From a virus, in the IMG/VR virus record IMGVR_UViG_3300044832_000020, positions 1 through 62,107 of that record: a stretch of DNA of 62,107 bases. One strand, given 5' to 3'. The notes beneath the pieces were generated by a model that was not told the DNA's origin, ran no database searches, and was given only the letters and a program-made list of their open reading frames with translations. Position 1 is the first letter of the stretch. The number at the start of each line of letters is the position of its first letter. The position numbers were made by a program, and so were the translations under genes. Shown here piece by piece: positions 2,928 to 59,293 of this stretch.

Positions 2928-3119
2928 TCATCGGGTCCTGCGGATCTTGAGGACCAGCCCCGGGTCGTCAGTCTTCGCACCGATCACCCGCGACCGGACC
3001 AGCTCGTACTGGCAGCCCTCGACGTCTTCCAGCAGGATCTCGGCCGTGTGGGTCGGCAGGTCGTTGATGGCCTGCTGTAGTTGCTCGATCAGTAGCAGGT
3101 TCTCCGCCGGCGTGCTCAC
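2928..3119 (-). CDS. hypothetical protein (63 aa)
   Basis: Track ORF with a G/C-rich third position. The GTG start overlaps the upstream stop (GTGA). Confidence 0.6.
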   Translation of the reverse strand: MSTPAENLLLIEQLQQAINDLPTHTAEILLEDVEGCQYELVRSRVIGAKTDDPGLVLKIRRTR

Positions 3120-3430
3120 TGCTGGAACTCCCCGATGACGCGATAGCCGCCCTGGCCTTCGAGGTTGCCGATCCGGTACATGCCGCGCACCTCGAACTCC
3201 ACATCGGGCTCGATCTCGACCTGCGGGTTATCGGGGGTCGGGCCGGCGGGCAGCATCCATTCGATGTGCCCTTCCCAGGAATCCCCGACGGCGATCCGCC
3301 CGCGAATGTCATCCAGGTAGGTCAGGAACTGGGCCGTGGTCATCGGCACCGGGACCTGGCGCATCGGCACCGGGTGCGGGTCGTGTTTGGGTCGCTTGTT
3401 CGGTTCGGCCTTCCACTTCTCAGTAGGCAT
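3116..3430 (-). CDS. hypothetical protein (104 aa)
   Basis: Internal ATG 3430 of track ORF 3116..3586. The upstream part of that ORF is P/R-rich and overlaps the neighbouring gene. Confidence 0.55.
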   Translation of the reverse strand: MPTEKWKAEPNKRPKHDPHPVPMRQVPVPMTTAQFLTYLDDIRGRIAVGDSWEGHIEWMLPAGPTPDNPQVEIEPDVEFEVRGMYRIGNLEGQGGYRVIGEFQQ

Positions 3431-3719
3431 CGCCGGCCGCCTTCCTGGCCTCATAGGAACGGTCGGCCCGGTCCCACTCGGCCTGTAGCTCGGGGCTGGT
3501 GGGTGGGTGCTCGATCGGCCGGGGTGCCAGCCATTCGGCTCGGATCTCGGCCAGCAGCGGCAGTAGAACGTCGGCGATCCGGTCACGCTCGCTGGCCAGC
3601 AGCATCGATGTACTGGCGCTCGGGGTGGTGGTCCGGAAAATGACGTTCACCACTCGCGCGTCGTACAGCAGGTTGTCGATCCGCCGGCGGTCGATCAGCT
3701 CCTGCGGGGTGTCAGTCAT
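3420..3719 (-). CDS. hypothetical protein (99 aa)
   Basis: Start MTDTPQELI at 3719, in ATGA overlap with the 3716 stop. Confidence 0.6.
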   Translation of the reverse strand: MTDTPQELIDRRRIDNLLYDARVVNVIFRTTTPSASTSMLLASERDRIADVLLPLLAEIRAEWLAPRPIEHPPTSPELQAEWDRADRSYEARKAAGDAY

Positions 3720-3922
3720 TTGCTCTCTCTCGCTTCCAGTGATCGGGGCAGCTCCTCGACGTAGGCGGCTTTGGTGCGCCACCGGTGCCCGTCGAGCGTG
3801 CAGGTCACCTCGGAGTAGTCGGACCTAGTACGGCGGTACCCGTTAAAGGCTGAGTAGTTCGCCCTGTAGACCGTGACCCGCCAGGACGATCGGTGATCCT
3901 TGCGCTTGCAGCCGCTAGTCAT
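3716..3922 (-). CDS. hypothetical basic protein (68 aa)
   Basis: Internal ATG 3922 of track ORF 3716..3991; 8-nt overlap with the upstream gene. Confidence 0.5.
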   Translation of the reverse strand: MTSGCKRKDHRSSWRVTVYRANYSAFNGYRRTRSDYSEVTCTLDGHRWRTKAAYVEELPRSLEARESK

Positions 3923-4208
3923 CGTCGTCGTACCGCATGCCGGGGATCCCTGTCCGGCCGTCCTCGGTCTTGACGACCTTGCTCTCAGCAACTAGCGGGA
4001 TGACGATCGTGTGGATCATCACCTCGTTGTGTTCGACCAGGTAGTCGCCGTTGTCGTCGGTCGCGATGACCTCCGCCGTGATGGCGTTGGCGTGGAACAC
4101 CAGCGACCGGATGTGGTCGAGCTGCACCAGGCCCAGCTCGGCCAGCAGCGCGTCGCGCTTCGCCTGGGTGATCGATTGCGGGATGCCCGCCAGATCTGTG
4201 TCTCGCAT
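3915..4208 (-). CDS. hypothetical protein (97 aa, acidic DDDD C-terminus)
   Basis: Track ORF in a GC3-rich frame. Confidence 0.65.
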   Translation of the reverse strand: MRDTDLAGIPQSITQAKRDALLAELGLVQLDHIRSLVFHANAITAEVIATDDNGDYLVEHNEVMIHTIVIPLVAESKVVKTEDGRTGIPGMRYDDDD

Positions 4209-14590: not shown

Positions 14591-15772
14591 ATGGTGTCGT
14601 TCCGACGTCTCCCGGCCAGCCGGCAGAACCCGGCTGGCCGGTGGCAGGCGACTGTCGTTCTACCGATCAAGATGCCCAGCGGGAAGTCCAAGCGCGTCAC
14701 CCGGACCCACATCCTGAAAGGCGTCCTGCGCGACTGGGGCCGCGAGCTGGAGGCACGGATCGCCGCCGGCGAGTGGCACGATCCTCGCGGTGCCGAGATC
14801 ACGCTCGATCAATGGCGCGTGACCTGGCTGACCGGCCGGGTCGCGGCGTCGGCGACGCTGGCGAAGGATCAGAGCCACTGGCGCAATCACGTCCAGCCCA
14901 AGTGGGGCGGCTACCCGCTCGCCGAGATCACCCGCACCCGGCTGCATGTCTGGGTCCGGGAGATGATCGACGCCGGACTGGGGGCCTGGACGATCGCCGG
15001 CTCGGTCGCGCACTTGTCGAGCATGCTCGCCGGCGCGGTCGAGGACAAACGTTTACCAGCGAACCCGGCTGCCGGAATCAAACTGCCGCGCGCCGACCCG
15101 AAGCCGGTTTTTTACTGGACCCGGGACGAGGCGAGCGCGCTGCTGCTGGGGCTCGGCGGTGATGATGCGCTGCTGGCGGATATCGGGCTGCACACCGGGT
15201 TGCGGATCGGCGAGCTACTGGGACTGCGCCGGCGGTACGTCGACACCGAGGCCGGGCTGATCCATGTCGTCGGCGTCCAGACGCGGAAGGGGTGGCGCGA
15301 GTACCCGAAATCCCGCAAGAGCCGGCGGCCGGTGCCGGTGCCGGCGCACCTACGCGGCCAGCTCACCGACCGCGTCGACCTGCTCGGCCCGGACGATTAC
15401 GTGTTCACCCCGGATGGCGTCCATGCGTGGGATGACCGCAACTTCGCCCGCCGGGTGTTCGACCCGGCGGTGGCGGCGGCCGGGATCCGGCGCGGCACCG
15501 CTCACGACATGCGCCACACCGCCGCGAGCTGGCTGGCGCAAGGCGGCATGGACCCCGCCAAACTGCAGGCCCTGCTCGGGCACGAGAACTACAAGACGAC
15601 CCAGCAGTACGCCCACCTGGAGCCGGATGCGTTCGATGACGCGCAGGCGATCTGGGCGGCCCGGCCGGTGGATGTGCGTCGAGCGCCCCTTGACGCTGTA
15701 ACGGGTTACAGGGGTGATCGCGTACAGACAGATACCCACGATCTCCCCGAGCCGGGAGGTGAGCACCGGTGA
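14591..15772 (+). CDS. int: tyrosine integrase
   Basis: GLRIGELLGL (Arg), HDMRHTAASW (HxxR) and LLGHENYKTTQQYAHL (His and Tyr) match the tyrosine recombinase catalytic signature. Confidence 0.9.
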   Translation: MVSFRRLPASRQNPAGRWQATVVLPIKMPSGKSKRVTRTHILKGVLRDWGRELEARIAAGEWHDPRGAEITLDQWRVTWLTGRVAASATLAKDQSHWRNHVQPKWGGYPLAEITRTRLHVWVREMIDAGLGAWTIAGSVAHLSSMLAGAVEDKRLPANPAAGIKLPRADPKPVFYWTRDEASALLLGLGGDDALLADIGLHTGLRIGELLGLRRRYVDTEAGLIHVVGVQTRKGWREYPKSRKSRRPVPVPAHLRGQLTDRVDLLGPDDYVFTPDGVHAWDDRNFARRVFDPAVAAAGIRRGTAHDMRHTAASWLAQGGMDPAKLQALLGHENYKTTQQYAHLEPDAFDDAQAIWAARPVDVRRAPLDAVTGYRGDRVQTDTHDLPEPGGEHR

Positions 15773-38730: not shown

Positions 38731-41178
38731 TCAGGAGGTCCGCTGCAGAACCTGGAAGGCGGCGTCGGCCAGGATCTTCGAGTTGTTGCGCCAGATCGCG
38801 TAGAGCCCGCGCTGGCCGGTCGGCATGCCGAGACCGGGAGCAGCAGCGACGTTGAAGATCTGCGGGATCAGCTCGACGCTCATGCCGAGCCGGTCCACGA
38901 TCAGGAACTGGGAGAAGTCCCCGAAGATCATCCAGCGGTCGCCGACGTTGCCGGGGCCGGTGAGCATCGCCGACGCCTCGTAGGCCGGGTAACCCAGCAG
39001 CTCCGGGGGCTGCCCGAATCCAACGCGCTGCCAGAGCGCCGAGCCGCCGGTGGTGTCGAGCTGTCGGAGCAGGTTGTAGGTGCTCTTGTTGGCCAGGAAG
39101 GTGGCGCCCGGCCGGAAGCGCGGGTTCAACCCGGACTCCAGCGAGTAGACGTTGGCCATCAGCACCAGGGCGCCGGCGGTGCCGACGTTCTGCGAGCTGT
39201 TGAGCGTCTTGACCACACCGTTGGGCTGCACGCCGATGCCGGTGCCGTTGAGGAAGGAGGTTCCCTCTTCCACGTTCTTGGCGTCAGCCAGCAGACGGAA
39301 CATCTCCGACTGCAGGCCGGTCCAGTCCTGGTCGACCTCGTACGAGAAGGGCACGAAGCCCTGGACGCGAGTCGGGGTCAGGGTCGGCTGTGCCAGGGCC
39401 GGCGAGTTGTCGGTGGCCGCTGCGGCTTCAGCAGCACGGCTGACCGTGATGCCGGCTGAGGTGACGCCCTGCCACTGCTGGCCGGTGATCGTCTCGATGC
39501 GGGCGACCTGACGGATCGGGCTGAGCACGGCGGTCGAGGTGAGGATCACCGTCGGGTCGAGGGTGAACGGCACCGCGAACGCGCCGGACGCGCCGGCACC
39601 CATCGCCAGGGCGCGTTGTTCCTCGCTGGTCAGCGTGTTGGTGCTGAGCGCCAGGCACGCCTTGCCGAACGCGCGCTGATAGGTCGGCGAGCCGGTGACG
39701 ATGATCCGCCGGGCGAACGTGCCCTGCTCATCGTCAACGAAGTCCAGCAGGTACTGGATCCGGTCGGCGGCCTCAGAGTGCTTGACGCCCCGGCCAGGGA
39801 ATCGGGTCTGCTCAACGATCCGCAGAGCAGCGTCCCGCATCAGCGACGGGACCTCGTCAATGCTGCGGGCCTGCTGCCGGATCGCGGCCAGGTCGTAGAT
39901 GTTGTCCGGGCGGCGAACGACGTTCGGCACCTGCGGGGTGACCTGCTCGCCGGCCTGGCGGGCAGCCATGTCAGCAAGGCGGGCCTTGCGGCGCTGGTCA
40001 GCGGCAATCGCCGTCTCGTTGCCGTCGAACTCGGTGTTAAGCGAGTCCCACTCGGTCTGGGTCTCACCCGGCAGGGTGGCCCCGTTGAATTCGTTGTCGA
40101 TCTCCTGCAGGCGTACGCGGATCTCCGACTGGCGAGCTTCGCGCTCCTCCGAGGTCAGAGGGTCGAGGTCAGGCATGGGGGTTGGTCCTTCCGGGCGCGG
40201 TGACGACGAATCGACCCGGGCTGCACGCGCAGGGGGTCGCTTGATTGCCTCGGAGTGCCGTTCGGCCGGTGCGTCCTCGGAGTGCTCGGTGAGCGAGTCC
40301 AGGCTCGACGCCGGGGTCGGCGGGTCGTCGGATACTGCGACGGCAACAGGGGCGGTGATGGTCGCGGGCTCGGGTTCCGAGGTGCGAAGCGTCACCGTTT
40401 CGATGGTGCCGGTGGCGCCGGCGGCGGCGTCGGGGATCGCGGGTTCGGCAGATACCGGAGTGCGAATCTCTTTCGTGCGCGCTAGCGCCTGGTCATAGAG
40501 TACCGGGTCGCGCCGGCGAAGGCGCTCATAGAAATCGTCGGTGCTGGACCGGAGGCTACCGGCCGAGCGCAGACCGGCGTCAGCAGCCGGGTTGGCGGGG
40601 AACGCGGTCGGCCCGAACTCGATCAGCCGAACCTCCCGGATGGTGCGCTGCGGGAGATCAGTCCACTTGTCATTGCCCGGGTCCTCCCAGGTGTCGGCTT
40701 CCGGGTCCTCGACCCAGTCATCGGCCATCACGTTGAACCGGAACGACTGCCCGTAGGCGCCAGCGCGGAGACCGCTCACGATGATCTGCGGCACGCCCTC
40801 GAACAACGGCACCTCGGCGTACGGGCCGGTGGCGTCTTCCTGCAGCATTTCGGGCAGGCCCAGCGGCCGGTCGCCCATCCCCGGGTCGAACCCGTGATCG
40901 AGCAGCACGCGCACCGGCGACTGGTTCGAGCGGTTGTTGATCGTCCGCTTGAACGCGCCTGGCGCGATCCGCTCGATGAACTTGCCCTCCCAGAATGAGT
41001 TGATCTCGTACCAGTCGTTGAACGTGGAGAAATGCCCCGTCATGGTGCCGGGGCTGTTGTCCGGGTTCGCGTCGGCGACAGCAGCCCGCAGCTCGGCCAC
41101 CAGTGCGGCGTCGCGGCAGACCTCGATACCGTCGAGCCTGGCCGGCGGCGAGTCGCGGAAAGTCGGGATAGCGGTCAT
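38731..41178 (-). CDS. prohead protease / scaffold-like linker / HK97-fold major capsid protein fusion (815 aa)
   Basis: N-terminus GKFIERIAPGAFKRT...LLDHG...GQSFRF resembles an HK97-family prohead protease. The middle is an acidic coiled linker. The C-terminal 300 aa resemble an HK97-type capsid. Confidence 0.75.
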   Translation of the reverse strand: MTAIPTFRDSPPARLDGIEVCRDAALVAELRAAVADANPDNSPGTMTGHFSTFNDWYEINSFWEGKFIERIAPGAFKRTINNRSNQSPVRVLLDHGFDPGMGDRPLGLPEMLQEDATGPYAEVPLFEGVPQIIVSGLRAGAYGQSFRFNVMADDWVEDPEADTWEDPGNDKWTDLPQRTIREVRLIEFGPTAFPANPAADAGLRSAGSLRSSTDDFYERLRRRDPVLYDQALARTKEIRTPVSAEPAIPDAAAGATGTIETVTLRTSEPEPATITAPVAVAVSDDPPTPASSLDSLTEHSEDAPAERHSEAIKRPPARAARVDSSSPRPEGPTPMPDLDPLTSEEREARQSEIRVRLQEIDNEFNGATLPGETQTEWDSLNTEFDGNETAIAADQRRKARLADMAARQAGEQVTPQVPNVVRRPDNIYDLAAIRQQARSIDEVPSLMRDAALRIVEQTRFPGRGVKHSEAADRIQYLLDFVDDEQGTFARRIIVTGSPTYQRAFGKACLALSTNTLTSEEQRALAMGAGASGAFAVPFTLDPTVILTSTAVLSPIRQVARIETITGQQWQGVTSAGITVSRAAEAAAATDNSPALAQPTLTPTRVQGFVPFSYEVDQDWTGLQSEMFRLLADAKNVEEGTSFLNGTGIGVQPNGVVKTLNSSQNVGTAGALVLMANVYSLESGLNPRFRPGATFLANKSTYNLLRQLDTTGGSALWQRVGFGQPPELLGYPAYEASAMLTGPGNVGDRWMIFGDFSQFLIVDRLGMSVELIPQIFNVAAAPGLGMPTGQRGLYAIWRNNSKILADAAFQVLQRTS

Positions 41179-42578: not shown

Positions 42579-42739
42579 GGGCGCTTCACCGGCCTAGTGG
42601 CGCGTTCGAGCGAGCCGATGCCGGCGGCGCCGAGCAGTAGGCCGGCCACGATGAACCCGGCCCAGTACGCGAGCAGACCCGCACCGATGACGAGACACGC
42701 GGCAGCGCAGAGCAACAGCACGAGCGCGTACCAAGTCAT
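42575..42739 (-). CDS. small two-helix membrane protein (54 aa) between terminase and portal
   Basis: MTWYALVLLLCAAACLVIGAGLLAYWAGFIVAGLLLGAAGIGSL. Start overlaps the TerL stop (TAATG) and its stop overlaps the portal start (ATGA). Confidence 0.5.
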   Translation of the reverse strand: MTWYALVLLLCAAACLVIGAGLLAYWAGFIVAGLLLGAAGIGSLERATRPVKRP

Positions 42740-44424
42740 TAGCCCTCCCCGTAGATGAAGAACGGATCCTTCGGTGGTTCTTCGGCTTCCAGCACGGCCA
42801 GGCGCCCGTCGATCGACATAAGCAGCGTCACCATGCCGTCGATCCGCTTCCCGGTCTTGCCGCGATCCGGCTTCACCGGTCGTACCCGGTCGCCGTCGTC
42901 GCGGGGTGATTTCGCCTCCAAGCTGTCCGCCATCCATGTCGAGACGGGGTTGCCGCCGTGGGCCAGCTCCTGGGATTTGAGTAGCCGGGAAAGTTCCTTC
43001 ATCGGCAGCGTCATGCGGTCGAACGTCGTGGCGGACTCATTCATCTCCAGCCCGGTCCGTTTCTGGATCTCTTGCCGGACGGGCTCGCCGGACCACCGGT
43101 CGTAGACGATGCCGGCGATCGAGTAGCGCGCGTGGTCGATCTCGATCGCCGAATAGATCAGGTCGTAATCGATCGTGTTGCCATCGGTCAGGGTGACCCA
43201 GCCGGCGTCGCACCACAGCGAGAACTTGCCGGCGGTGTGTTTGTCGAGCAGTGGCACGACCGACTCGGGTGCCCAGTACCGCCAGATCACGGTGCCGTCC
43301 TCGAACAACAGCGACCACGCGGTCAGGTCCAGCTTGGACGAGAGGTCGAGACCGGCCCAGCACTTGCGCCCTTCGAGCTGAGGGGCGAGCCAGTCGGGCT
43401 CGGGCGCGATGCCGAGATCGCCGATGTTGTCGTTCCACTCGGCGATCGACAACCAGCGGGTCGTCTGCTGCACCCATTGGCTGAGCCGGAACTGCCGGAA
43501 CTTGTTCTCTTTGGTCCGGTCGTTCTTGGCTTCGACCGCTTCCTCCCGCAGTACCTGCAGGGACAGGAAGTCACCGAGCGCCGGGTTGCCCAGCTTCCAG
43601 TTGCGTTCGTTCCACGGGTCCGCGTCGGCCGGGACGTTGCGGATGTAAACGAACGTGTGGGGGTTCCGGCTCGGGTCCTCAGCGATCCGGATCATCTCGT
43701 CGTGCTCGGCCTTGGCGAACGATGAATCGTCGTCGCCGGGCGTCGTGACGCCGACCATGAGCGGCTGGGTGCGAGCGCCGAAGCCGGTTCGCAGCGCTGA
43801 CCAGAGATCCCCGTTCGGCTGGGTGATGACCTCATCGAACGCGATCCCGTGCGGGTTCTGTCCGAGGTTGCCGGATGCGTCGGCGGCGATCACTTGATAG
43901 AACGACCCGGTTCGTTCGTCCACGATCCGCTTGCCTTGCTTGTAGATCGTCAACCGCTGAGACAGGATCGGCGACAGCTCCACCATCCGGCGCGCGACCT
44001 CGTAAACGATCGACGCTTGGTCCCTGTCTTTGGCGCACCCGTACAGCTCGGCGCCCTCTTCGCCGTCGGCGACCAGCAGAAACAGCATGATGCCGGCGAG
44101 CAGCTCGGATTTCCCGTTCTTGCGGCCCAGCTCGATCCACGCGATCCGGTACCGGCGGACGTACGTCTCCGACTCGGGGTCCCAGCGGATCGTCCCGAAC
44201 AACGGCGCGACGATATCCCGTTTCTGCCACAACGCCAGCGCGAACGCTTTCCGCGCCCACCTGGCCTTGGTGTGGACGAGCACTTCGGCGAAGAACTTGA
44301 CGACATGCGTGACGCGCGGCGCGCAGTGATGATCGCCGACCTTGCGACATGTCGTCCCGTCGAGCGCGTAGCCGCAAGGCGGTAGGCGCCGCTGTACCGC
44401 CTTCGAGGGGGTTCTAGTTGTCAT
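42739..44424 (-). CDS. terL: terminase large subunit
   Basis: 561 aa. LGRKNGKSELLAGI (Walker A-like), FDEV (Walker B-like) and a C-terminal nuclease-type region. Confidence 0.8.
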   Translation of the reverse strand: MTTRTPSKAVQRRLPPCGYALDGTTCRKVGDHHCAPRVTHVVKFFAEVLVHTKARWARKAFALALWQKRDIVAPLFGTIRWDPESETYVRRYRIAWIELGRKNGKSELLAGIMLFLLVADGEEGAELYGCAKDRDQASIVYEVARRMVELSPILSQRLTIYKQGKRIVDERTGSFYQVIAADASGNLGQNPHGIAFDEVITQPNGDLWSALRTGFGARTQPLMVGVTTPGDDDSSFAKAEHDEMIRIAEDPSRNPHTFVYIRNVPADADPWNERNWKLGNPALGDFLSLQVLREEAVEAKNDRTKENKFRQFRLSQWVQQTTRWLSIAEWNDNIGDLGIAPEPDWLAPQLEGRKCWAGLDLSSKLDLTAWSLLFEDGTVIWRYWAPESVVPLLDKHTAGKFSLWCDAGWVTLTDGNTIDYDLIYSAIEIDHARYSIAGIVYDRWSGEPVRQEIQKRTGLEMNESATTFDRMTLPMKELSRLLKSQELAHGGNPVSTWMADSLEAKSPRDDGDRVRPVKPDRGKTGKRIDGMVTLLMSIDGRLAVLEAEEPPKDPFFIYGEG

Positions 44425-44481: not shown

Positions 44482-44949
44482 TCAGGACAGCAGTCGTGCG
44501 GCGCCGGCACCATGGCCCTTGCCGCCGCCCATGTGAATGTCGGAACGCCCGGACGGGGTCAGCCCGAACTCGCGCGCGTAGACCCGGATCGTGGCGGCGG
44601 CGTCGCGCTGCACCTGGACGGCGGGGTTGCGGACGGCGACCTGCCCGGTGCGCGCGTTGACCGTGACGAGCACGTTGGATTTCGCGAGCAGCCGGGATGC
44701 CTTGCGGTGGATCACCACGGCCTCGCAGTAGCAGACGAGTGCGTCACGGTCGGCGGGGCTGGCCAGCTTCATCGCGACGAGCTGGGTCAGGGTGTAGTCC
44801 CAGACGGCGCGCACTTCGGGGCTCATCTCCGCCGGCGGCTCGGGCTGCCCTTCGGGCGCGTCGGGTTCGTCGGTGTTGATCCGATCTTTCCGGTCGCCCT
44901 TCAGGATTCGCAGGTTGGTGGGTGCGCCTTTCGGTCCTCGTGCGCCCAT
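44482..44949 (-). CDS. terS: terminase small subunit (P27-family-like)
   Basis: MGARGPKGAPTNLRILKGDRKDRIN...AVWDYTL...VRNPAVQV...REFGLTPSGR resembles the P27 small terminase family. Confidence 0.7.
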   Translation of the reverse strand: MGARGPKGAPTNLRILKGDRKDRINTDEPDAPEGQPEPPAEMSPEVRAVWDYTLTQLVAMKLASPADRDALVCYCEAVVIHRKASRLLAKSNVLVTVNARTGQVAVRNPAVQVQRDAAATIRVYAREFGLTPSGRSDIHMGGGKGHGAGAARLLS

Positions 44950-48736: not shown

Positions 48737-49753
48737 ATGTCGCACCAGCTAGAACGCAACGGCACCGAGGTCGCCTTTGTCGACAACCGGAACGATGCTT
48801 GGCACCAGCTCAACAACCTGCCGGCCGAGTATCAGGGCAAGAAAATCAGCGCGGAGGTAGCGCTGGAGGCCGGCCACCTCGCCGACTGGAACGTCCGCAA
48901 GGTTCCCGCGTATGCCCTGCTCGACGGCGGCGAGTACGTCGCGATGCCCGGTCAATTCGCCACCGTTCGCGACAACCCCTGGACGCCAGGCCAAGTCGAT
49001 CTGCTCGGCAGTGTCGGCAGCGCCTACGTGCCCGTCCAGAACGAAAGCAACATCGACGTCCTGAATGCCGTTATCGATGAGACGGGCGCCACGATCGAGA
49101 CCGCCGGCTCGCTGCGCGACGGCAAGAACGTGTTCGTCACGATGAAACTCCCCGACACGATGAGCGTGGGCGGCGTCGACAAGGTCGATCTCTACATCGC
49201 CGGTCTCAACAGCCACGATGGGACGTCCGCGTACAACATCCTCGTCTCGCCGGTCCGCGTCGTCTGCGCCAACACCCAGAGCTATGCGCTCCGCAACTTC
49301 GAGGCGAAACACCCGATCCGCCACACATCCAGCGCGACCAAGAAAATCGAGCTGGTCCGCCAGTCGCTCGGGCTCGCGTTCAAGTACGCCGAGGAGCTGC
49401 AGGTCGAGGCAGACAAGATGATCGACACCGCGCAGACCGAGGCCCAGTTCCTGGAGATCGTCAACCAGATCTGGACCCCCGACGACGAGCCCAGCAAGCG
49501 GGCCGTCACCGTCGCTGCCGAGCGCACCGCAAAGCTGGTCGACCTGTTCTCAGTCGCCCCCACCCAGGCGAACATCAGGGGCACCCGCTGGGCCGGTCTG
49601 CAGGCAGTCACCGAGTACATGGACCATTTCGCGCCCGTCCACAGTGGCCAGCGCGACGAAGCCACCCAGCGCGCCGAGCGCGTCCTGGTCGGCTCCACCG
49701 CCGCCAGCAAGTCGACCCGCCAAAAGGCGTTCGACCTCTTCTCCGTCAACTGA
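48737..49753 (+). CDS. DUF932-family phage/plasmid protein (338 aa)
   Basis: NDAWHQL...VPVQNE...GKNVFVTMKLP...LNSHDGTSAY...VRVVCANT fits the DUF932/TIGR03299 pattern. Confidence 0.65.
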   Translation: MSHQLERNGTEVAFVDNRNDAWHQLNNLPAEYQGKKISAEVALEAGHLADWNVRKVPAYALLDGGEYVAMPGQFATVRDNPWTPGQVDLLGSVGSAYVPVQNESNIDVLNAVIDETGATIETAGSLRDGKNVFVTMKLPDTMSVGGVDKVDLYIAGLNSHDGTSAYNILVSPVRVVCANTQSYALRNFEAKHPIRHTSSATKKIELVRQSLGLAFKYAEELQVEADKMIDTAQTEAQFLEIVNQIWTPDDEPSKRAVTVAAERTAKLVDLFSVAPTQANIRGTRWAGLQAVTEYMDHFAPVHSGQRDEATQRAERVLVGSTAASKSTRQKAFDLFSVN

Positions 49754-53709: not shown

Positions 53710-53933
53710 GAGCCAAGCTGGAGCGAGATTTCGACGGCGGCGCCATCGTCATCACGACCCGGCGCCGCTGGTATCGAGCCGGCGCCTGGTTCGGCATTGC
53801 GCCCGGTCACCACAAGGGACTGTGGCACACACCCGGCCGAGTGCATGGCTGGAATCTGCGGGTCGGGTCGCTGCACAAGTGCCTCACTCTGCTCGGTCAC
53901 ACGCGGCCCCGCGATGACAGGTATGACCGATGA
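53706..53933 (+). CDS. hypothetical protein (75 aa)
   Basis: ATG 53706 in ATGA overlap. Confidence 0.45.
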   Translation: MRAKLERDFDGGAIVITTRRRWYRAGAWFGIAPGHHKGLWHTPGRVHGWNLRVGSLHKCLTLLGHTRPRDDRYDR

Positions 53934-54319
53934 TGCCGCCCGAAGAACTGCGCGTGCTGACCGTGCGCCAGCCCCACGCCAGCGCGATCGTGCTCGGGCA
54001 CAAAGACGTCGAGAACCGCACATGGCAATGCCCGGTGCGTAGCGTCATCGCCATCCATGCCGGCAAGTCGCCCAGCGAGATCGCGCTGGCCATGCCGCTG
54101 CTGCTGCCCGACCCGCTACCGACCGGCGCCATCATCGGCGTGGTTCGCGTCGCCGACTGCCTGCCCGGCACGTCGACCAGCCCGTGGGCGATCCCCGGGC
54201 ACTGGCACTGGGTGCTCGCCGACCCCCGGCTACTGAAAGTGCCGGTCGCCTTCACGGGGCGCCAGGCCCTCATCCACGCACCGGCCGACGTCGCTCGCGC
54301 CGTGCTGGACCAGCTTTGA
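53930..54319 (+). CDS. ASCH-domain (PUA-like) protein (129 aa)
   Basis: LTVRQPHASAIVLGHKDVENRTW...IAIHAG fits the ASCH N-terminal pattern. Confidence 0.6.
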   Translation: MMPPEELRVLTVRQPHASAIVLGHKDVENRTWQCPVRSVIAIHAGKSPSEIALAMPLLLPDPLPTGAIIGVVRVADCLPGTSTSPWAIPGHWHWVLADPRLLKVPVAFTGRQALIHAPADVARAVLDQL

Positions 54320-54345: not shown

Positions 54346-54373
54346 GACGCTCCCCTCCCTGGAGGGGAGCGTC
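54346..54373. terminator. bidirectional stem-loop at the convergence of the plus block and the early minus operon
   Basis: gacgctcccctcc ct ggaggggagcgtc read directly. Confidence 0.7.
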
Positions 54374-54394: not shown

Positions 54395-55522
54395 TCAGCC
54401 TTCCGACGCGGCAGGGGGCAACGTCGAGCGTCCCAGCGGCACGTACTCGAACGACCTCACCGAGAGCCGGCGGGGGCTGAGGTTCCCGCGTCGCAGACTG
54501 GAGCGGGTTGTCGTCATCAACTGCCGAAGGTTCTTCGACGTCGAGCGCCAGCGCGGCGAGCGGGTGCAGTAGGCGATCACCGCCGGGTGCGCCACCACGT
54601 ACCGATAGCGGAACCCCTGATCGGCCAGGCGCTCCCCGACCCAGTCATTCATCCGCATGCCCAGACCGAGGCCCTGGAAGTCAGGCAGCACCACCAGCCG
54701 GTGCGCCATCTTGATCGTGCTCGTGTGCGGGTGCTGGAAATGCTTGTAGGCCGTGAACGCCACCAGCCGGCCGTCGATCCAGCCGCCGTAGCACGTCGCC
54801 GAACTGATCAGCTCGGCGCTCAAATAGTGATGACGGCGGAACATCTGCCAGGCAGCTTTGCCCACCGGGGCAATGGCAAGCTCGACTGGAGGGTGGGGTT
54901 GAACCGACCTCCAGTTGAATTCGCCGGTCGCCAGATCCAGCACCCAATCGGGCTGCAGCCAGTCGTGAACGTCGTAATGGCACGTCACCGCGACGAACCG
55001 CTGGCCGTTGCGGCGGACCGTTTTCTGCAGGGCATGCGAGGCGACCTGCGCGACCTGGCGATCCACGACCGAGGTGAACTCGTCCACGACCGTGACGCCG
55101 TCGACCGGCTCGGACAGCAGGCGCGCCATGTCGGCGCGGAACTGCTCGCCGTTGCTCAACGTCCGGTACGGCCGGCACCAGCTCGGCGGTGAGGACAGCC
55201 CCACGGCGGACAGCGCGCCGGTCACGTCTTTGATGCCCATCTGCTCGGGGAAGCCGTCAACGATCGCGGAATCCGCCGGCCAGGGCTTCATCTCGCGCAT
55301 CTGCTCGGGCCAGCGCTCCCGGGCGATGGTCGTCTTGCCCGATCCGGACGGGCCGACGATCATGCCGACCTGCCACGGTTGCGCATCGAGCGGCAGCGAC
55401 ACGTCCCAACTGAGGTCGGCCCGGTCAGCCAGCGGCACATCGAACATCGCCGAGAGCTGCAGCACCCGGCCGGATCGCTGCACCGGCGTGGAGACTGAGA
55501 CCTTGACCCGGTCGCCGCTCAT
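54395..55522 (-). CDS. ABC-type ATPase fused to a GNAT-like acyltransferase domain (375 aa)
   Basis: GPSGSGKTT (Walker A), LSNGEQFRA (signature), VVDEFTS (Walker B). The C-terminal RRHHYL...RLVVLPDFQGLGLG is a GNAT-like CoA-binding loop. Confidence 0.6.
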   Translation of the reverse strand: MSGDRVKVSVSTPVQRSGRVLQLSAMFDVPLADRADLSWDVSLPLDAQPWQVGMIVGPSGSGKTTIARERWPEQMREMKPWPADSAIVDGFPEQMGIKDVTGALSAVGLSSPPSWCRPYRTLSNGEQFRADMARLLSEPVDGVTVVDEFTSVVDRQVAQVASHALQKTVRRNGQRFVAVTCHYDVHDWLQPDWVLDLATGEFNWRSVQPHPPVELAIAPVGKAAWQMFRRHHYLSAELISSATCYGGWIDGRLVAFTAYKHFQHPHTSTIKMAHRLVVLPDFQGLGLGMRMNDWVGERLADQGFRYRYVVAHPAVIAYCTRSPRWRSTSKNLRQLMTTTRSSLRRGNLSPRRLSVRSFEYVPLGRSTLPPAASEG

Positions 55523-55824
55523 GTCCCCACCTTCAGGTCGGTACCGTCCCAGACGAACTCGCCGGCCTCGCCGACCGGGAAGTGAGCCCTGCAGCCGACG
55601 CAGAACGTCCCGCCATAGAAGGACGGATCGCGGGCGTACGTCTCGGCGATCGCCCGGCCCATCGTCGTGACCGTGCCACATGGCAAGTGCCGGTATCGGG
55701 TGCGGACAGGTCGCACGAAACCCTTGGCGCGCTCGTCGTCCGACAGCACCAGATATTTCTCCTGCATGCCGTCCGGCTCGATCTTGCGCAGGCCCGGATC
55801 GTTGCGATCGTCTGTCGTGCTCAC
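55519..55824 (-). CDS. hypothetical protein with C...CVGC motif (101 aa)
   Basis: GTG 55824 in GTGA overlap; ATGA overlap downstream. Confidence 0.5.
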   Translation of the reverse strand: MSTTDDRNDPGLRKIEPDGMQEKYLVLSDDERAKGFVRPVRTRYRHLPCGTVTTMGRAIAETYARDPSFYGGTFCVGCRAHFPVGEAGEFVWDGTDLKVGT

Positions 55825-55919
55825 ACTGCCCACCAGCCCCCGATGGATCCGACCATGACGACGATCACGCCGGCCAGGAATCCGAGCAGCCCGAAGTACG
55901 CCTCGTCCCAGCCCTTCAT
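55821..55919 (-). CDS. 32-aa transmembrane mini-protein
   Basis: MKGWDEAYFGLLGFLAGVIVVMVGSIGGWWAV; overlaps at both ends. Confidence 0.35.
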   Translation of the reverse strand: MKGWDEAYFGLLGFLAGVIVVMVGSIGGWWAV

Positions 55920-56581
55920 GCGAACGTGACGGCGTCGCCGTCGCCGTCGACCAGCTTGGCGAGATCGTCCCAGCTCAACTTGAACCGGCCCTTCACTCCC
56001 CAGCCGGCGCCCCACGAATTGGTGCCGAGCACGTACTTGCCTTTGACGTTGACGCCATTCAGCTCGACCTCATGGCCGCCGACCTCAGCGCCGGTCGCGT
56101 GGATGAAACCGGCCGGATCGGTGAACATCATGCCATTGAGCCAGCGAACGCCGATCCCCACCGGGCCGACGTGCGAGATCGTGTCGATGATCTGCTGATG
56201 GCCGAAACACCAGCGGTAGCCGGTGATCAGGTTCACGGACAGCAGGTACTTGCAGGCGCCGAGCGCGGAGGTGCCGTCGTAGTTGGCGCCGGGCCACTCG
56301 TCAAAGTCCTGTGCGTGCCGGTAGATATCCAGCGCATTGAGGCCGGCGCGCTGAGCCGGCGACAGGTGAGCCGTGAACGGGGTCGTTGTCAGTAGCCCCT
56401 TCATTGTTTGCCCAACGCAACTACTGGTCTGACCCTGATCGAATGGCGCCGGCCGGCGCCAGGTCCGGTTGCGCAGGGGCTGATCGGTCGCCAGCGTGAC
56501 CGGGTAGTCCCGTGAGCGGGGGTCGTGCTGGATCACCGACCGGCCCATGTAGCTCGGGGAAACAATCTGGATGCTGGTCAT
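55916..56581 (-). CDS. papain-like (C1 family) cysteine peptidase (221 aa)
   Basis: DQGQTSSCVGQ (Gln/Cys), GGHEVEL (His) and GTNSWGAGWGVKGRF (Asn-Ser-Trp) match the papain catalytic signature. Confidence 0.65.
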   Translation of the reverse strand: MTSIQIVSPSYMGRSVIQHDPRSRDYPVTLATDQPLRNRTWRRPAPFDQGQTSSCVGQTMKGLLTTTPFTAHLSPAQRAGLNALDIYRHAQDFDEWPGANYDGTSALGACKYLLSVNLITGYRWCFGHQQIIDTISHVGPVGIGVRWLNGMMFTDPAGFIHATGAEVGGHEVELNGVNVKGKYVLGTNSWGAGWGVKGRFKLSWDDLAKLVDGDGDAVTFA

Positions 56582-56781
56582 CGTGCGCCGCCCTTCCAGC
56601 CGGTGTCGTTGACCGGCATGCCGTGCGAGTCGAGCAGCCGGGGCCAGCCGGGCTGTTCCGGGCCGTCAATGTTCGAGTAGAGCCGCTTGGTCCGGCGCGC
56701 CCCGCAACTGCACTGGTAGTAGGCGTGAAGGTCGGCCTGCCAATTGGGGTCGCTGTGGAAATGCGGCCAGCGCCACCTCAT
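56578..56781 (-). CDS. hypothetical protein (67 aa)
   Basis: Track ORF with ATGA overlaps. Confidence 0.5.
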   Translation of the reverse strand: MRWRWPHFHSDPNWQADLHAYYQCSCGARRTKRLYSNIDGPEQPGWPRLLDSHGMPVNDTGWKGGAR

Positions 56782-57374
56782 CGGACCATCGCCCGGACGT
56801 CGAGCCCTTCCGCGTCGAGCTTCTCCAAGAGATCGAGCTGTTGCGCCTCATCCCGGCAAGTGATGATCACACCCCAGACCGGGTCCTCCTCGTCGTCGCC
56901 GCCCTCGTCCACGGACTGATCCCCGACCAGCTTGGCGAGATCCTCCTCGCTGTAGCCGGTCGCGGTGAGATCGTCCATGCCGCCGAGCATTTCGGCCAGC
57001 ATCTCCGGGTCCCGCTTCGCCAGCTCGGCGATGCGATTGTCGGCAGCAACGATCCCGACCGCCTCTTCCTGGTCGACGTCGATCAGCGTCCGGGCGATAT
57101 CCGGCCAGCCTTCCTGCCGGGCCGCCTGCCAGGTGTGGTTGCCGGCCAGGATCTCATTCGGCCGGCCAGTCAACGTGCCGATGTTGACCGTGATCGGCTT
57201 GTACTGGCCGAACCGGCGCAGGCTCCGCCGGATCAACGCGACGTCGCCCACGTTCGGGTTGCCCTTGAACTGACGCAGCTCCTCGATCGGCACCACCAGC
57301 TCGGCGAGCTGGGTATGGATCCGTGGCCGGGTCTCGGACGCCTCGGTCACCTCGGTCGCCTTCCGCGCGTTCAC
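56778..57374 (-). CDS. ParB N-terminal-domain (ParB-like nuclease/NTPase fold) protein (198 aa)
   Basis: VPIEELRQFKGNPN...LIRRSLRRFGQYKPITV...ILAGNHTWQAA fits the ParBc motif pattern. Confidence 0.55.
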   Translation of the reverse strand: MNARKATEVTEASETRPRIHTQLAELVVPIEELRQFKGNPNVGDVALIRRSLRRFGQYKPITVNIGTLTGRPNEILAGNHTWQAARQEGWPDIARTLIDVDQEEAVGIVAADNRIAELAKRDPEMLAEMLGGMDDLTATGYSEEDLAKLVGDQSVDEGGDDEEDPVWGVIITCRDEAQQLDLLEKLDAEGLDVRAMVR

Positions 57375-58376: not shown

Positions 58377-58706
58377 TCACTGCCGACCTCGGGTATTGCG
58401 GTTCTCGTTCTCGTGTTCGGGTCCTTTGTAGATTCGGGGATCGGCCGGATCGTGACCGAGATCCCACGCTTGACCGGGCTCGATCAGCTCGTCGCATCGC
58501 CAGCAGTGCGCGAGACCTGCTGCGACCTGCTCGGCTACCTGTGCGCGCAGTCGCTGATGCGGCGTGCCGTAGCCACGCTGACTGGTGGTGCCTTTGCGCG
58601 CTGCACACACACCACACCGCTGACCCACTGGGTGCTTGGTCGTGCAGCGGGGGCAGATCGTGAGCGGGCGTGTGGGCATGGGACTCAGCGCAGGTAGCGG
58701 CCACAT
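58377..58706 (-). CDS. HNH endonuclease (start 58706 or ATG 58679)
   Basis: CPRC...RC..C...RGYG..H.RLR...CWRC...WDLGHD...GPEH resembles a phage HNH. Confidence 0.7.
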   Translation of the reverse strand: MWPLPALSPMPTRPLTICPRCTTKHPVGQRCGVCAARKGTTSQRGYGTPHQRLRAQVAEQVAAGLAHCWRCDELIEPGQAWDLGHDPADPRIYKGPEHENENRNTRGRQ

Positions 58707-59293
58707 GAGGGCCAGGGTGAGGCGCCACGCTGGGCGTACAGGGCTTTGGCCCTGGCGAGCTGCTCGGATGCTGAGGCCGCTGCCGGGTCACCGCTACCGC
58801 CGACGCTGCGCCAGGTGCGGGTGTCGAACTGGAACAGCCCCCGATAGGTGCCTGATGGGTTGACTGCCCGGGGGTTGCCACCGCTCTCGCAGCGGGCGAC
58901 CTGTGCCCATGCGCCTGACAGTGTGACGCGGCTACTGGTACGTGATGGCCGGGTGGTGCGTGACCGGGTGGTGCGTGACCGGGTGGCCGGGTGGTAGGCC
59001 CGTGCTGCCGGTGTCGGTGGGTAGTAGCGGCGCTCGATCGAGCTGACGCCGGTGAGGTCGAGGTGTTGACCGATGAGGATCAGGTCAGGGTTGGCGAGGT
59101 GGTTGGTGATGGCCAACAGGTGCCAGTCGACACCTCGTGCGGCGCCCAGCCCGGACAGTGTGTCGCCCGGCTTGACGGTGTAGGCATCAGCGCTGATGGC
59201 GCCGGCTACTGCGAGACCGGTGCCTAGGAGGGTTGCGAGTAGAGCTCTGACCGCATAGCGCGAGCGAGGCTTGGCATGACGGGCATGAGACAT
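58685..59293 (-). CDS. secreted LysM + Rpf-like (resuscitation-promoting-factor-type transglycosylase) protein (202 aa)
   Basis: Signal peptide ALLATLLGTGLAVAGAISA. LysM YTVKPGDTLSGL...ILIGQHLDL. Rpf-type domain WAQVARCESGGNPRAVNPSGTYRGLFQFDTRTW...WPSCG. Confidence 0.7.
   Translation of the reverse strand: MSHARHAKPRSRYAVRALLATLLGTGLAVAGAISADAYTVKPGDTLSGLGAARGVDWHLLAITNHLANPDLILIGQHLDLTGVSSIERRYYPPTPAARAYHPATRSRTTRSRTTRPSRTSSRVTLSGAWAQVARCESGGNPRAVNPSGTYRGLFQFDTRTWRSVGGSGDPAAASASEQLARAKALYAQRGASPWPSCGRYLR

Follow-up and report, generated by a model that had tools for sequence, protein, structure and literature searches.

An ABC ATPase-GNAT fusion protein with ParB-like and ASCH neighbors in a temperate actinophage, and its possible role in acylation of phage DNA

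Results

The fusion gene and its reading frame

We analyzed the IMG/VR virus record IMGVR_UViG_3300044832_000020 over its whole length of 62,107 bp (hereafter the window), a complete phage genome with direct terminal repeats at its ends. The gene of interest lies at 54395..55522 on the minus strand and encodes a protein of 375 amino acids (aa) plus stop which joins an ABC-type ATPase to a GNAT acyltransferase domain, as seen from the open reading frame (ORF), its translation, its match to the PHROG family phrog_11143 and an AF2 model. A gene for a ParB-like protein lies upstream on the same strand, and a gene for an ASCH-domain protein converges on the fusion gene from its other side.

The ATG of the fusion gene at 55522 overlaps the stop codon of a 104-aa upstream ORF (ATGA) and is preceded by a GAAGGTGGGGA stretch. 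A longer, 428-aa reading starting at 55681 is not supported: homologs are about 365 aa long and align from about residue 5, and because they start at the same point as the 375-codon version, the 428-codon version is not the gene. The reading frame is open throughout, with no stops. The match to phrog_11143, a family of unknown function in PHROGs, runs nearly end to end (E 1e-101; residues 7-361 on profile positions 2-349 of 357), and AF2 models the whole protein with confidence (pLDDT 92, pTM 0.88). Among the 73 cultured phage records with a relative, 55 cover at least 80% of the protein in one place.

The ABC-type ATPase domain

The ABC-type ATPase domain (residues 1-205; 54908..55522, minus strand) is supported by PDB profile matches, Foldseek and motif conservation. 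Its minus-strand sequence carries Walker A (GPSGSGKT, residues 57-64; 55331-55354), the ABC signature (LSNGEQ, residues 122-127; 55142-55159), Walker B with the catalytic Glu (VVDEF, residues 145-149; 55079-55096) and the H-loop His182 (54977-54979). We assessed conservation across 73 full-length homologs which share 33-84% identity. Residues S59, G60, G62, K63, L122, S123, G125, D147, E148, C181 and H182 are invariant in this set, R129 of the signature and D154 of the D-loop are invariant or nearly so, and the same holds for the motifs GPSGSGKT, LSNGEQ, VVDE, SVVD (D-loop) and CH (H-loop) as a whole. Between Walker A and the signature the conserved positions are W81 and D89, and no glutamine that could be assigned to a Q-loop is among the invariant or near-invariant residues. 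As the signature motif is conserved, two ABC domains are predicted to form the usual ATP-sandwich dimer.

Pfam ABC_tran matches the domain at E 2e-4, and the family profile matches ABC nucleotide-binding domains in the PDB with E values down to 5e-17. Foldseek matches of the model include the transporter-type nucleotide-binding domains FtsE, MetN and MalK, and NCBIfam gave weak similarity to ABC transporter ATPases, far under every family cut-off. The domain shares with these transporter proteins the fold, Walker A, signature, Walker B, D-loop and H-loop, but it has no membrane partner, has a short helical subdomain (about residues 87-121 of the AF2 model) and is fused to a GNAT domain. We rejected a role in transport: there is no permease within 10 kb, and the conserved neighbors are ParB, ASCH and terminase. 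An earlier reading of this DNA made from the letters alone (the sequence-only reading) had reported no transmembrane partner nearby, in agreement with our finding that no gene between 44.4 and 61.9 kb has more than one membrane-like segment.

Some homologs carry insertions. P0211 has an intein (Hint plus a LAGLIDADG homing endonuclease) inside the ABC domain, from about residue 63, and long insertions are present in P0169 and P0244. Intein insertion at such sites is typical of functionally constrained ATPases.

The GNAT domain and basic tail

The GNAT acyltransferase domain (residues 206-325; 54548..54907, minus strand) is supported by Pfam, fold matches and invariant residues. Pfam Acetyltransf_1 matches residues 236-309 at E 2e-5, above the cut-off. 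Folded alone with 71 homologs, the C-terminal domain was modeled at pLDDT 87, and Foldseek returned GNATs only for the GNAT domain model, at probability 1.00. An independent all-against-all search with VIA-align likewise found GNATs in all of its top 50 matches (Z 11.8-14.3), RimI being the best at Z 14.3. The acyl-CoA pyrophosphate-binding motif RLVVLPDFQGLGLG (residues 275-288; 54659-54700, minus strand) includes QGLGLG, which corresponds to the beta4-alpha3 Q/R-x-x-G-x-G/A acyl-CoA motif. R275, P280, Q283 and G284 are invariant, and G286, W225, H232 and Y233 are invariant or nearly so. By fold and motif the domain is a member of the GNAT superfamily, and it is predicted to use acyl-CoA.

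An Arg-rich tail (residues 326-375; 54398..54547, minus strand) follows, modeled mostly with low confidence: pLDDT is 53-59 over residues 331-350, 82 and 68 over residues 351-370, and below 50 over residues 370-375. Both regions are basic as estimated from sequence. The GNAT domain has a median isoelectric point (pI) of 10.0 across the family, and the tail has a net charge of +8 here, with a family median of +6 and a pI of 10.8.

The sequence-only reading had described a single polypeptide that combines an ABC-type ATPase with a GNAT-like domain. The end-to-end phrog_11143 match and the support for both folds bear this out: the motifs it quoted (Walker A, signature, Walker B and the GNAT motif at 275-288) are all present where it placed them, the top fold matches of the domain model are all GNATs, and the fusion, which it had considered might be a sequencing artefact of two genes, is genuine.

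A large family with a published prediction

More than 7,600 proteins of a 90%-clustered database match the fusion protein at E ≤ 1e-5, with coverage of 79-99% in all 120 matches listed, and 674 representatives of a 50%-clustered library match at E ≤ 1e-30. Relatives occur on at least 583 IMG/VR contigs and in 73 cultured phage records (Gordonia, Arthrobacter, Streptococcus, Lactococcus, Pseudomonas, Burkholderia, Aeromonas, Porphyromonas, Leptospira and others), so that the cultured-phage carriers span Actinobacteria, Firmicutes, Proteobacteria, Bacteroidetes and spirochaetes. The window protein is 56% identical to gp86 of Gordonia phage Jace (95% coverage) and 33% identical to its relative in Tenacibaculum phage pT24.

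Iyer, Zhang, Burroughs and Aravind (Nucleic Acids Research, 2013; doi 10.1093/nar/gkt573) reportedly predicted that phage GNAT-ABC ATPase systems modify DNA. A later paper (PMC7824862, 2021) restates Iyer et al. 2013 as predicting that a phage “GNAT coupled with an ABC ATPase” acylates a DNA base, and names pT24 as an example. Because pT24 is among the matches of the window protein, the window gene belongs, by sequence, to this predicted system, which is phrog_11143. It shares with that system the two-domain architecture over its full length, a ParB-like partner gene and a tailed-phage genome. The sequence-only reading had thought ATP-driven acyl transfer to a nucleic acid or protein conceivable, which is in line with this prediction. 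The window copy is an intact, ordinary member of a known, widespread family: the kind was predicted in 2013 and the copy is not new.

Split forms of the gene were also seen. In 12 Streptococcus records (L005, prophage 315.4, 2968-4037, and 11 others) the gene matches in two pieces, and in Streptococcus prophages it is annotated as separate genes for an ABC protein and a small hypothetical protein, which suggests a frameshift or a split form. The order in these prophages is ParB, ABC, GNAT piece, ASCH, terminase. Escherichia phage PhiR41_1 (SSU5-like; L088 2156-5053) has a split variant whose genes overlap at their ends: two ParB_N proteins, one of which bears the annotation DNA modification methylase, precede a 221-aa protein with the ABC part alone and an unknown protein of 296 aa that may replace the GNAT domain.

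The ParB-like partner and the leftward operon

The ParB-like gene (ParB/Srx N-terminal domain; 56778..57374, minus strand; 198 aa) lies 1.26 kb upstream of the fusion gene on the same strand and matches phrog_723 at E 4e-44. A further match of its product is to the N-terminal part of phrog_498, a family of phage DNA methyltransferases (E 9e-26), and over its whole length the product is 35% identical to the N-terminal part of P0141, a natural ParB-ABC-GNAT fusion (E 2e-21). To sample the neighborhoods of relatives, we took 80 viral contigs and 5 cultured phages and searched their ORFs with iterated profiles that started from the window proteins. ParB is present in 81 of these 85 loci, where it is almost always the next gene upstream, on the strand of the enzyme and with ends overlapping or abutting; three of the four loci without it have no upstream DNA. 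The ParB profile was also matched by 13 of 150 listed family representatives (50%-identity clusters), in 12 of which the ParB domain is N-terminal to the ABC-GNAT match.

The fusion gene is the last gene of a leftward operon. Between it and the ParB-like gene lie, all on the minus strand, a 67-aa ORF (56578..56781; GC3 0.87) with no Pfam or PHROG match, a papain-like cysteine peptidase (55916..56581; Peptidase_C1 E 1.4e-4, phrog_16701 E 3e-44) and a 104-aa protein with four cysteines (55519..55833) which the ATGA overlap marks as translationally coupled to the fusion gene. Neither Pfam nor PHROGs gave a match for the 104-aa protein, and the Atlas clusters closest to it are of unnamed viral proteins. 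A homolog of the peptidase was found in only one of the 85 related loci, on the opposite strand. The same leftward operon encodes, at 58377-59293 (minus strand), an HNH endonuclease (phrog_1808) and a LysM plus Rpf-like transglycosylase protein.

Position relative to the terminase genes, and accessory genes

A large terminase gene starts at most 3 kb downstream of the enzyme in 48 of the 77 loci which have at least 2 kb of downstream DNA, and these terminases come from four unrelated sequence families. In the window, the small terminase gene (44482-44949, minus strand; phrog_83, E 4e-30) and the large one (42739-44424, minus strand; phrog_9, E 2e-132) are separated from the module by a rightward block of small genes at about 45.2-54.3 kb, of which the ASCH gene is the last. 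The window module thus differs from the usual phrog_11143 arrangement in not standing directly before terS/terL. The pre-terminase position is a variable trait of the family, typical but not universal. A DUF932 protein (E 5e-61) is encoded within the rightward block at 48737-49753 (plus strand).

In some relatives, further enzymes are encoded next to the module. Jace has PanD and a CoA-transferase fragment directly downstream of the enzyme, and in phiE255 (gp30, L003 4128-4742) and BiggityBass (gp3, L004 1823-2473) a Formyl_trans_N protein comes directly after it, annotated in BiggityBass as a tRNA methyltransferase. The phiE255 and BiggityBass enzymes form a separate deep tree branch with 100% support. 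These accessory genes of other phages point to tailored acyl donors. The window phage differs in that such donor-making genes (PanD, CoA-transferase, formyltransferase) are absent from it.

The convergent ASCH gene

The ASCH-domain gene (53930..54319, plus strand; 129 aa; phrog_3193, E 5e-35) converges on the fusion gene. Its product matches the ASCH domain of ASC-1/TRIP4 in the PDB (E 3.5e-5) and carries the catalytic-type octapeptide GHKDVENR (residues 23-30; 53996-54019, plus strand). Previous work has shown that the ASCH protein YqfB is an N4-acylcytidine amidohydrolase (PMC6972931), and that ASCH proteins remove N4-acetylcytidine (ac4C) from tRNA, with the Lys and Glu/Thr of the octapeptide being essential (bioRxiv 10.64898/2026.02.27.708502). 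The window ASCH has the fold and the G-x-K-x-x-E/T-x-R motif of the N4-acylcytosine amidohydrolases, and the corresponding activity is predicted for it.

Of the 85 loci, 19 have an ASCH gene near the module; about half of these ASCH genes are encoded on the opposite strand and overlap the enzyme gene at the stop codons. The GxKxxExR deacylase motif is kept in the window ASCH and in 18 of the 19 neighbor ASCH proteins. On the enzyme tree ASCH is scattered: its distribution needs 16 changes, with at least 10 gains or losses forced by well-supported branches, and therefore the pairing of ASCH and enzyme was gained or lost many times. A restriction of ASCH to one enzyme clade was rejected, the tree needing 16 changes versus 17.2 in shuffles. 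The ASCH profile also matches Jace gp89 (L001 8211-8669), which is annotated as a helix-turn-helix DNA binding protein and contains GIKDVENR. The set of genes in Jace is thus ParB, ABC-GNAT, PanD and a CoA-transferase fragment, together with an ASCH gene that converges on them.

The stop codons of the ASCH and fusion genes face each other across 75 bp, and in this gap lies a G+C-rich hairpin (54346..54373) with a perfect stem of 12 bp and a loop of 4 nt. A 96-nt segment spanning the hairpin has a folding energy of -37.1 kcal/mol (z -2.0), a terminator-like site was called on the plus strand, and a T-rich stretch follows the hairpin on the plus side only. The hairpin is likely a terminator shared by the two genes.

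The sequence-only reading was right about the domains of the fusion protein and overlooked the ParB-like gene, the convergent ASCH gene and the usual pre-terminase place of the module.

Comparison with Mom and TmcA

Among enzymes with the GNAT fold, only Mom of phage Mu, which carries out methylcarbamoylation of adenine N6, is to our knowledge established as modifying a DNA base. It resembles the window enzyme by functional analogy, as a GNAT-fold phage enzyme acting on the exocyclic amine of a DNA base, and differs in having no ATPase domain and no ParB partner. We rejected membership of the Mom family (PF25680): the Pfam scan gave no match to it at E ≤ 1, and aligning 72 GNAT domains with 44 Mom proteins by hhalign gave a probability of 1.7% and E 0.03 over 47 columns only. 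This non-significant alignment sets H232-Y233 of the family opposite the nearly invariant H58-Y59 of Mom (H-Y-S), after the first helix.

TmcA/NAT10 enzymes are alike in combining an ATPase and a GNAT domain in one polypeptide, ATP-dependent acetyl transfer to N4 of cytidine being the TmcA/NAT10 feature, and in making a mark which ASCH proteins erase. They differ in that their ATPase is helicase-like and not of the ABC type, in their tRNA-binding domain, and in having no ParB or terminase context. Membership of this family too was rejected, as the helicase, GNAT_acetyltr_2 and tRNA_bind_2 domains were absent from the Pfam scan at E ≤ 1. The comparisons with TmcA and Mom made in the sequence-only reading thus hold as analogies for a possible mode of action, and fail as family membership by Pfam and hhalign.

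The phage genome

The window has a G+C content of about 66% and contains an integrase gene (14591-15772), and the nearest named cellular homologs of the fusion protein in a database search are from Nonomuraea, Streptomyces and related actinomycetes; the window is therefore a temperate actinophage. No near-identical DNA was found among cultured phages by megablast. An 815-aa ORF at 38731-41178 (minus strand) matches a head maturation protease (residues 37-208) and a major head protein (residues 344-812), and looks like a protease-capsid fusion gene.

Discussion

We favor a reading in which the module carries out ParB-assisted, ATP-dependent acyl transfer to phage DNA, possibly to N4 of cytosine, and we regard this reading as evenly poised between right and wrong. 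ATP binding would join two ABC domains head to tail, as in other ABC ATPases, and the ParB-like protein would give access to double-stranded DNA. The GNAT domain would then transfer an acyl group from acyl-CoA to a base of the phage DNA, at an exocyclic amine, after replication and either ahead of packaging or in its course. The donor here would probably be acetyl-CoA, because no donor-making gene is present. The acyl mark would protect phage DNA against host nucleases. N4 of cytosine may be the target, and is favored because the Lys/Glu/Arg motif known from N4-acetylcytidine amidohydrolases is intact in the ASCH protein; the convergent ASCH protein would remove or limit the mark. The full form of this proposal, in which ParB and the ATPase-GNAT enzyme write N4-acyl (probably acetyl) cytosine marks on double-stranded phage DNA at packaging and ASCH erases them, is more tentative, and we consider it rather doubtful.

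Several findings support acylation of DNA: the domains are intact and their catalytic motifs conserved, the ParB neighbor is near-universal and occurs in natural fusions, the usual place of the module is just before the packaging genes, and the GNAT domain and tail are basic. ParB-like proteins also accompany other phage base-modifying enzymes. The thymine dioxygenase 5mYOX176 requires ParB176 on double-stranded DNA only (PMC13229309), and DpdB is described as a ParB-like ATPase working with DpdA (PMC12839542). As at our locus, each of these systems has a short ParB-like protein encoded beside the base-modifying enzyme, often near terminase genes, and these proteins have an N-terminal nucleotide-binding domain and a small C-terminal domain, with no helix-turn-helix DNA-binding domain detected. 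They differ in chemistry: 5mYOX176 is a dioxygenase and DpdA a transglycosylase, whereas the window protein is a predicted acyltransferase with its own ATPase, and its dependence on ParB is a prediction.

Other observations weigh against acylation of DNA. DNA is named as the target from gene context alone, the solved structures closest in fold to the GNAT domain are those of protein N-terminal acetyltransferases (RimI, Naa50 and Naa10), which score within about 1 Z of many other GNATs, and profile-profile comparison gave no significant similarity to Mom. In the window phage, unlike at most loci, three unrelated genes, the papain-like peptidase among them, stand between ParB and the enzyme, and the module lies 9.4 kb from the terminase genes behind a block on the opposite strand. 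Only about one module in five has an ASCH gene nearby, and the action of ASCH enzymes has so far been shown on nucleosides and tRNA, not on DNA (bioRxiv 10.64898/2026.02.27.708502). Our literature searches turned up no experimental work on any member of the phrog_11143 family.

The target could instead be a protein. Here the enzyme would be a protein acetyltransferase with ParB as its adaptor. Its substrate, acetylated as late gene expression begins, would be a protein of the phage or of the host, such as one involved in packaging, the nucleoid or transcription, or even ParB. We think this unlikely. The best fold matches of the GNAT domain are indeed protein N-alpha-acetyltransferases (RimI at Z 14.3, Naa50 at 13.8 and Naa10 at 13.2), and phage GNATs which modify host proteins exist, Rac of phiKMV-like phages being an example cited in PMC7824862. 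However, these Z scores fail to separate protein-acting GNATs from others, and a protein target leaves unexplained the ParB partner and fusions, the basic GNAT domain and tail, the recurrent ASCH and the donor-making genes of relatives.

An RNA target is, in our judgment, quite unlikely. TmcA/NAT10 sets a precedent for an ATPase and a GNAT domain that together make ac4C, and a similar phage enzyme could act as an RNA or tRNA cytidine acetyltransferase with ATP and acetyl-CoA, its mark being erased by the phage ASCH. A basic GNAT domain and tail would be equally suited to RNA and to DNA, and the removal of ac4C from tRNA by ASCH proteins (bioRxiv 10.64898/2026.02.27.708502), together with the motif kept in the window ASCH, fits such a role. 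Yet no TmcA-type domain was detected at E ≤ 1, the only trace being a NAT10 match limited to motif A (E 0.58), and the ParB/Srx partners and fusions, the sharing of the ParB domain with DNA methyltransferases and the pre-terminase position point to DNA.

It is improbable that the module is a packaging accessory without acyl transfer, in which ParB and an ABC dimer would recognize, bridge or condense DNA and the GNAT domain would be a structural remnant. Some ABC ATPases are DNA-bridging dimers, and the module adjoins the terminase genes in most relatives. A remnant is at odds with the conservation of R275, P280, Q283, G284, G286, W225, H232 and Y233, which are invariant or nearly so among homologs as little as 33% identical; in addition, separate small terminase genes persist, in the window phage as elsewhere, and the ABC domain resembles the transporter type and not SMC or Rad50. 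Finally, an assembly or sequencing artefact joining two genes has next to no chance of being the explanation: the gene does occur in two pieces or as two annotated genes in some Firmicutes prophages, but here the frame is open, the two-domain model is confident and matching proteins number in the thousands, with coverage of at least 79% in all 120 listed.

The window copy itself adds little to the family. Its local peculiarities, a ParB-like gene three genes from the enzyme and a module detached from the terminase genes, are minor, and what it does contribute is that the ParB-enzyme pair and ASCH stay together though the module has moved from the terminase genes, and that the intact catalytic motif of its ASCH narrows the hypothesis of DNA acylation to N4-acylcytosine. 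The family is very large and stands at a key place in phage genomes. If acylation of DNA is correct, it would be a new class of phage DNA modification, with a bearing on restriction evasion, sequencing artefacts and enzyme tools. If the writing and erasing of N4-acylcytosine is also correct, ParB-ABC-GNAT and ASCH would form the first pair of enzymes that write and erase an acyl mark on DNA, and thousands of phages across many bacterial phyla would carry it.

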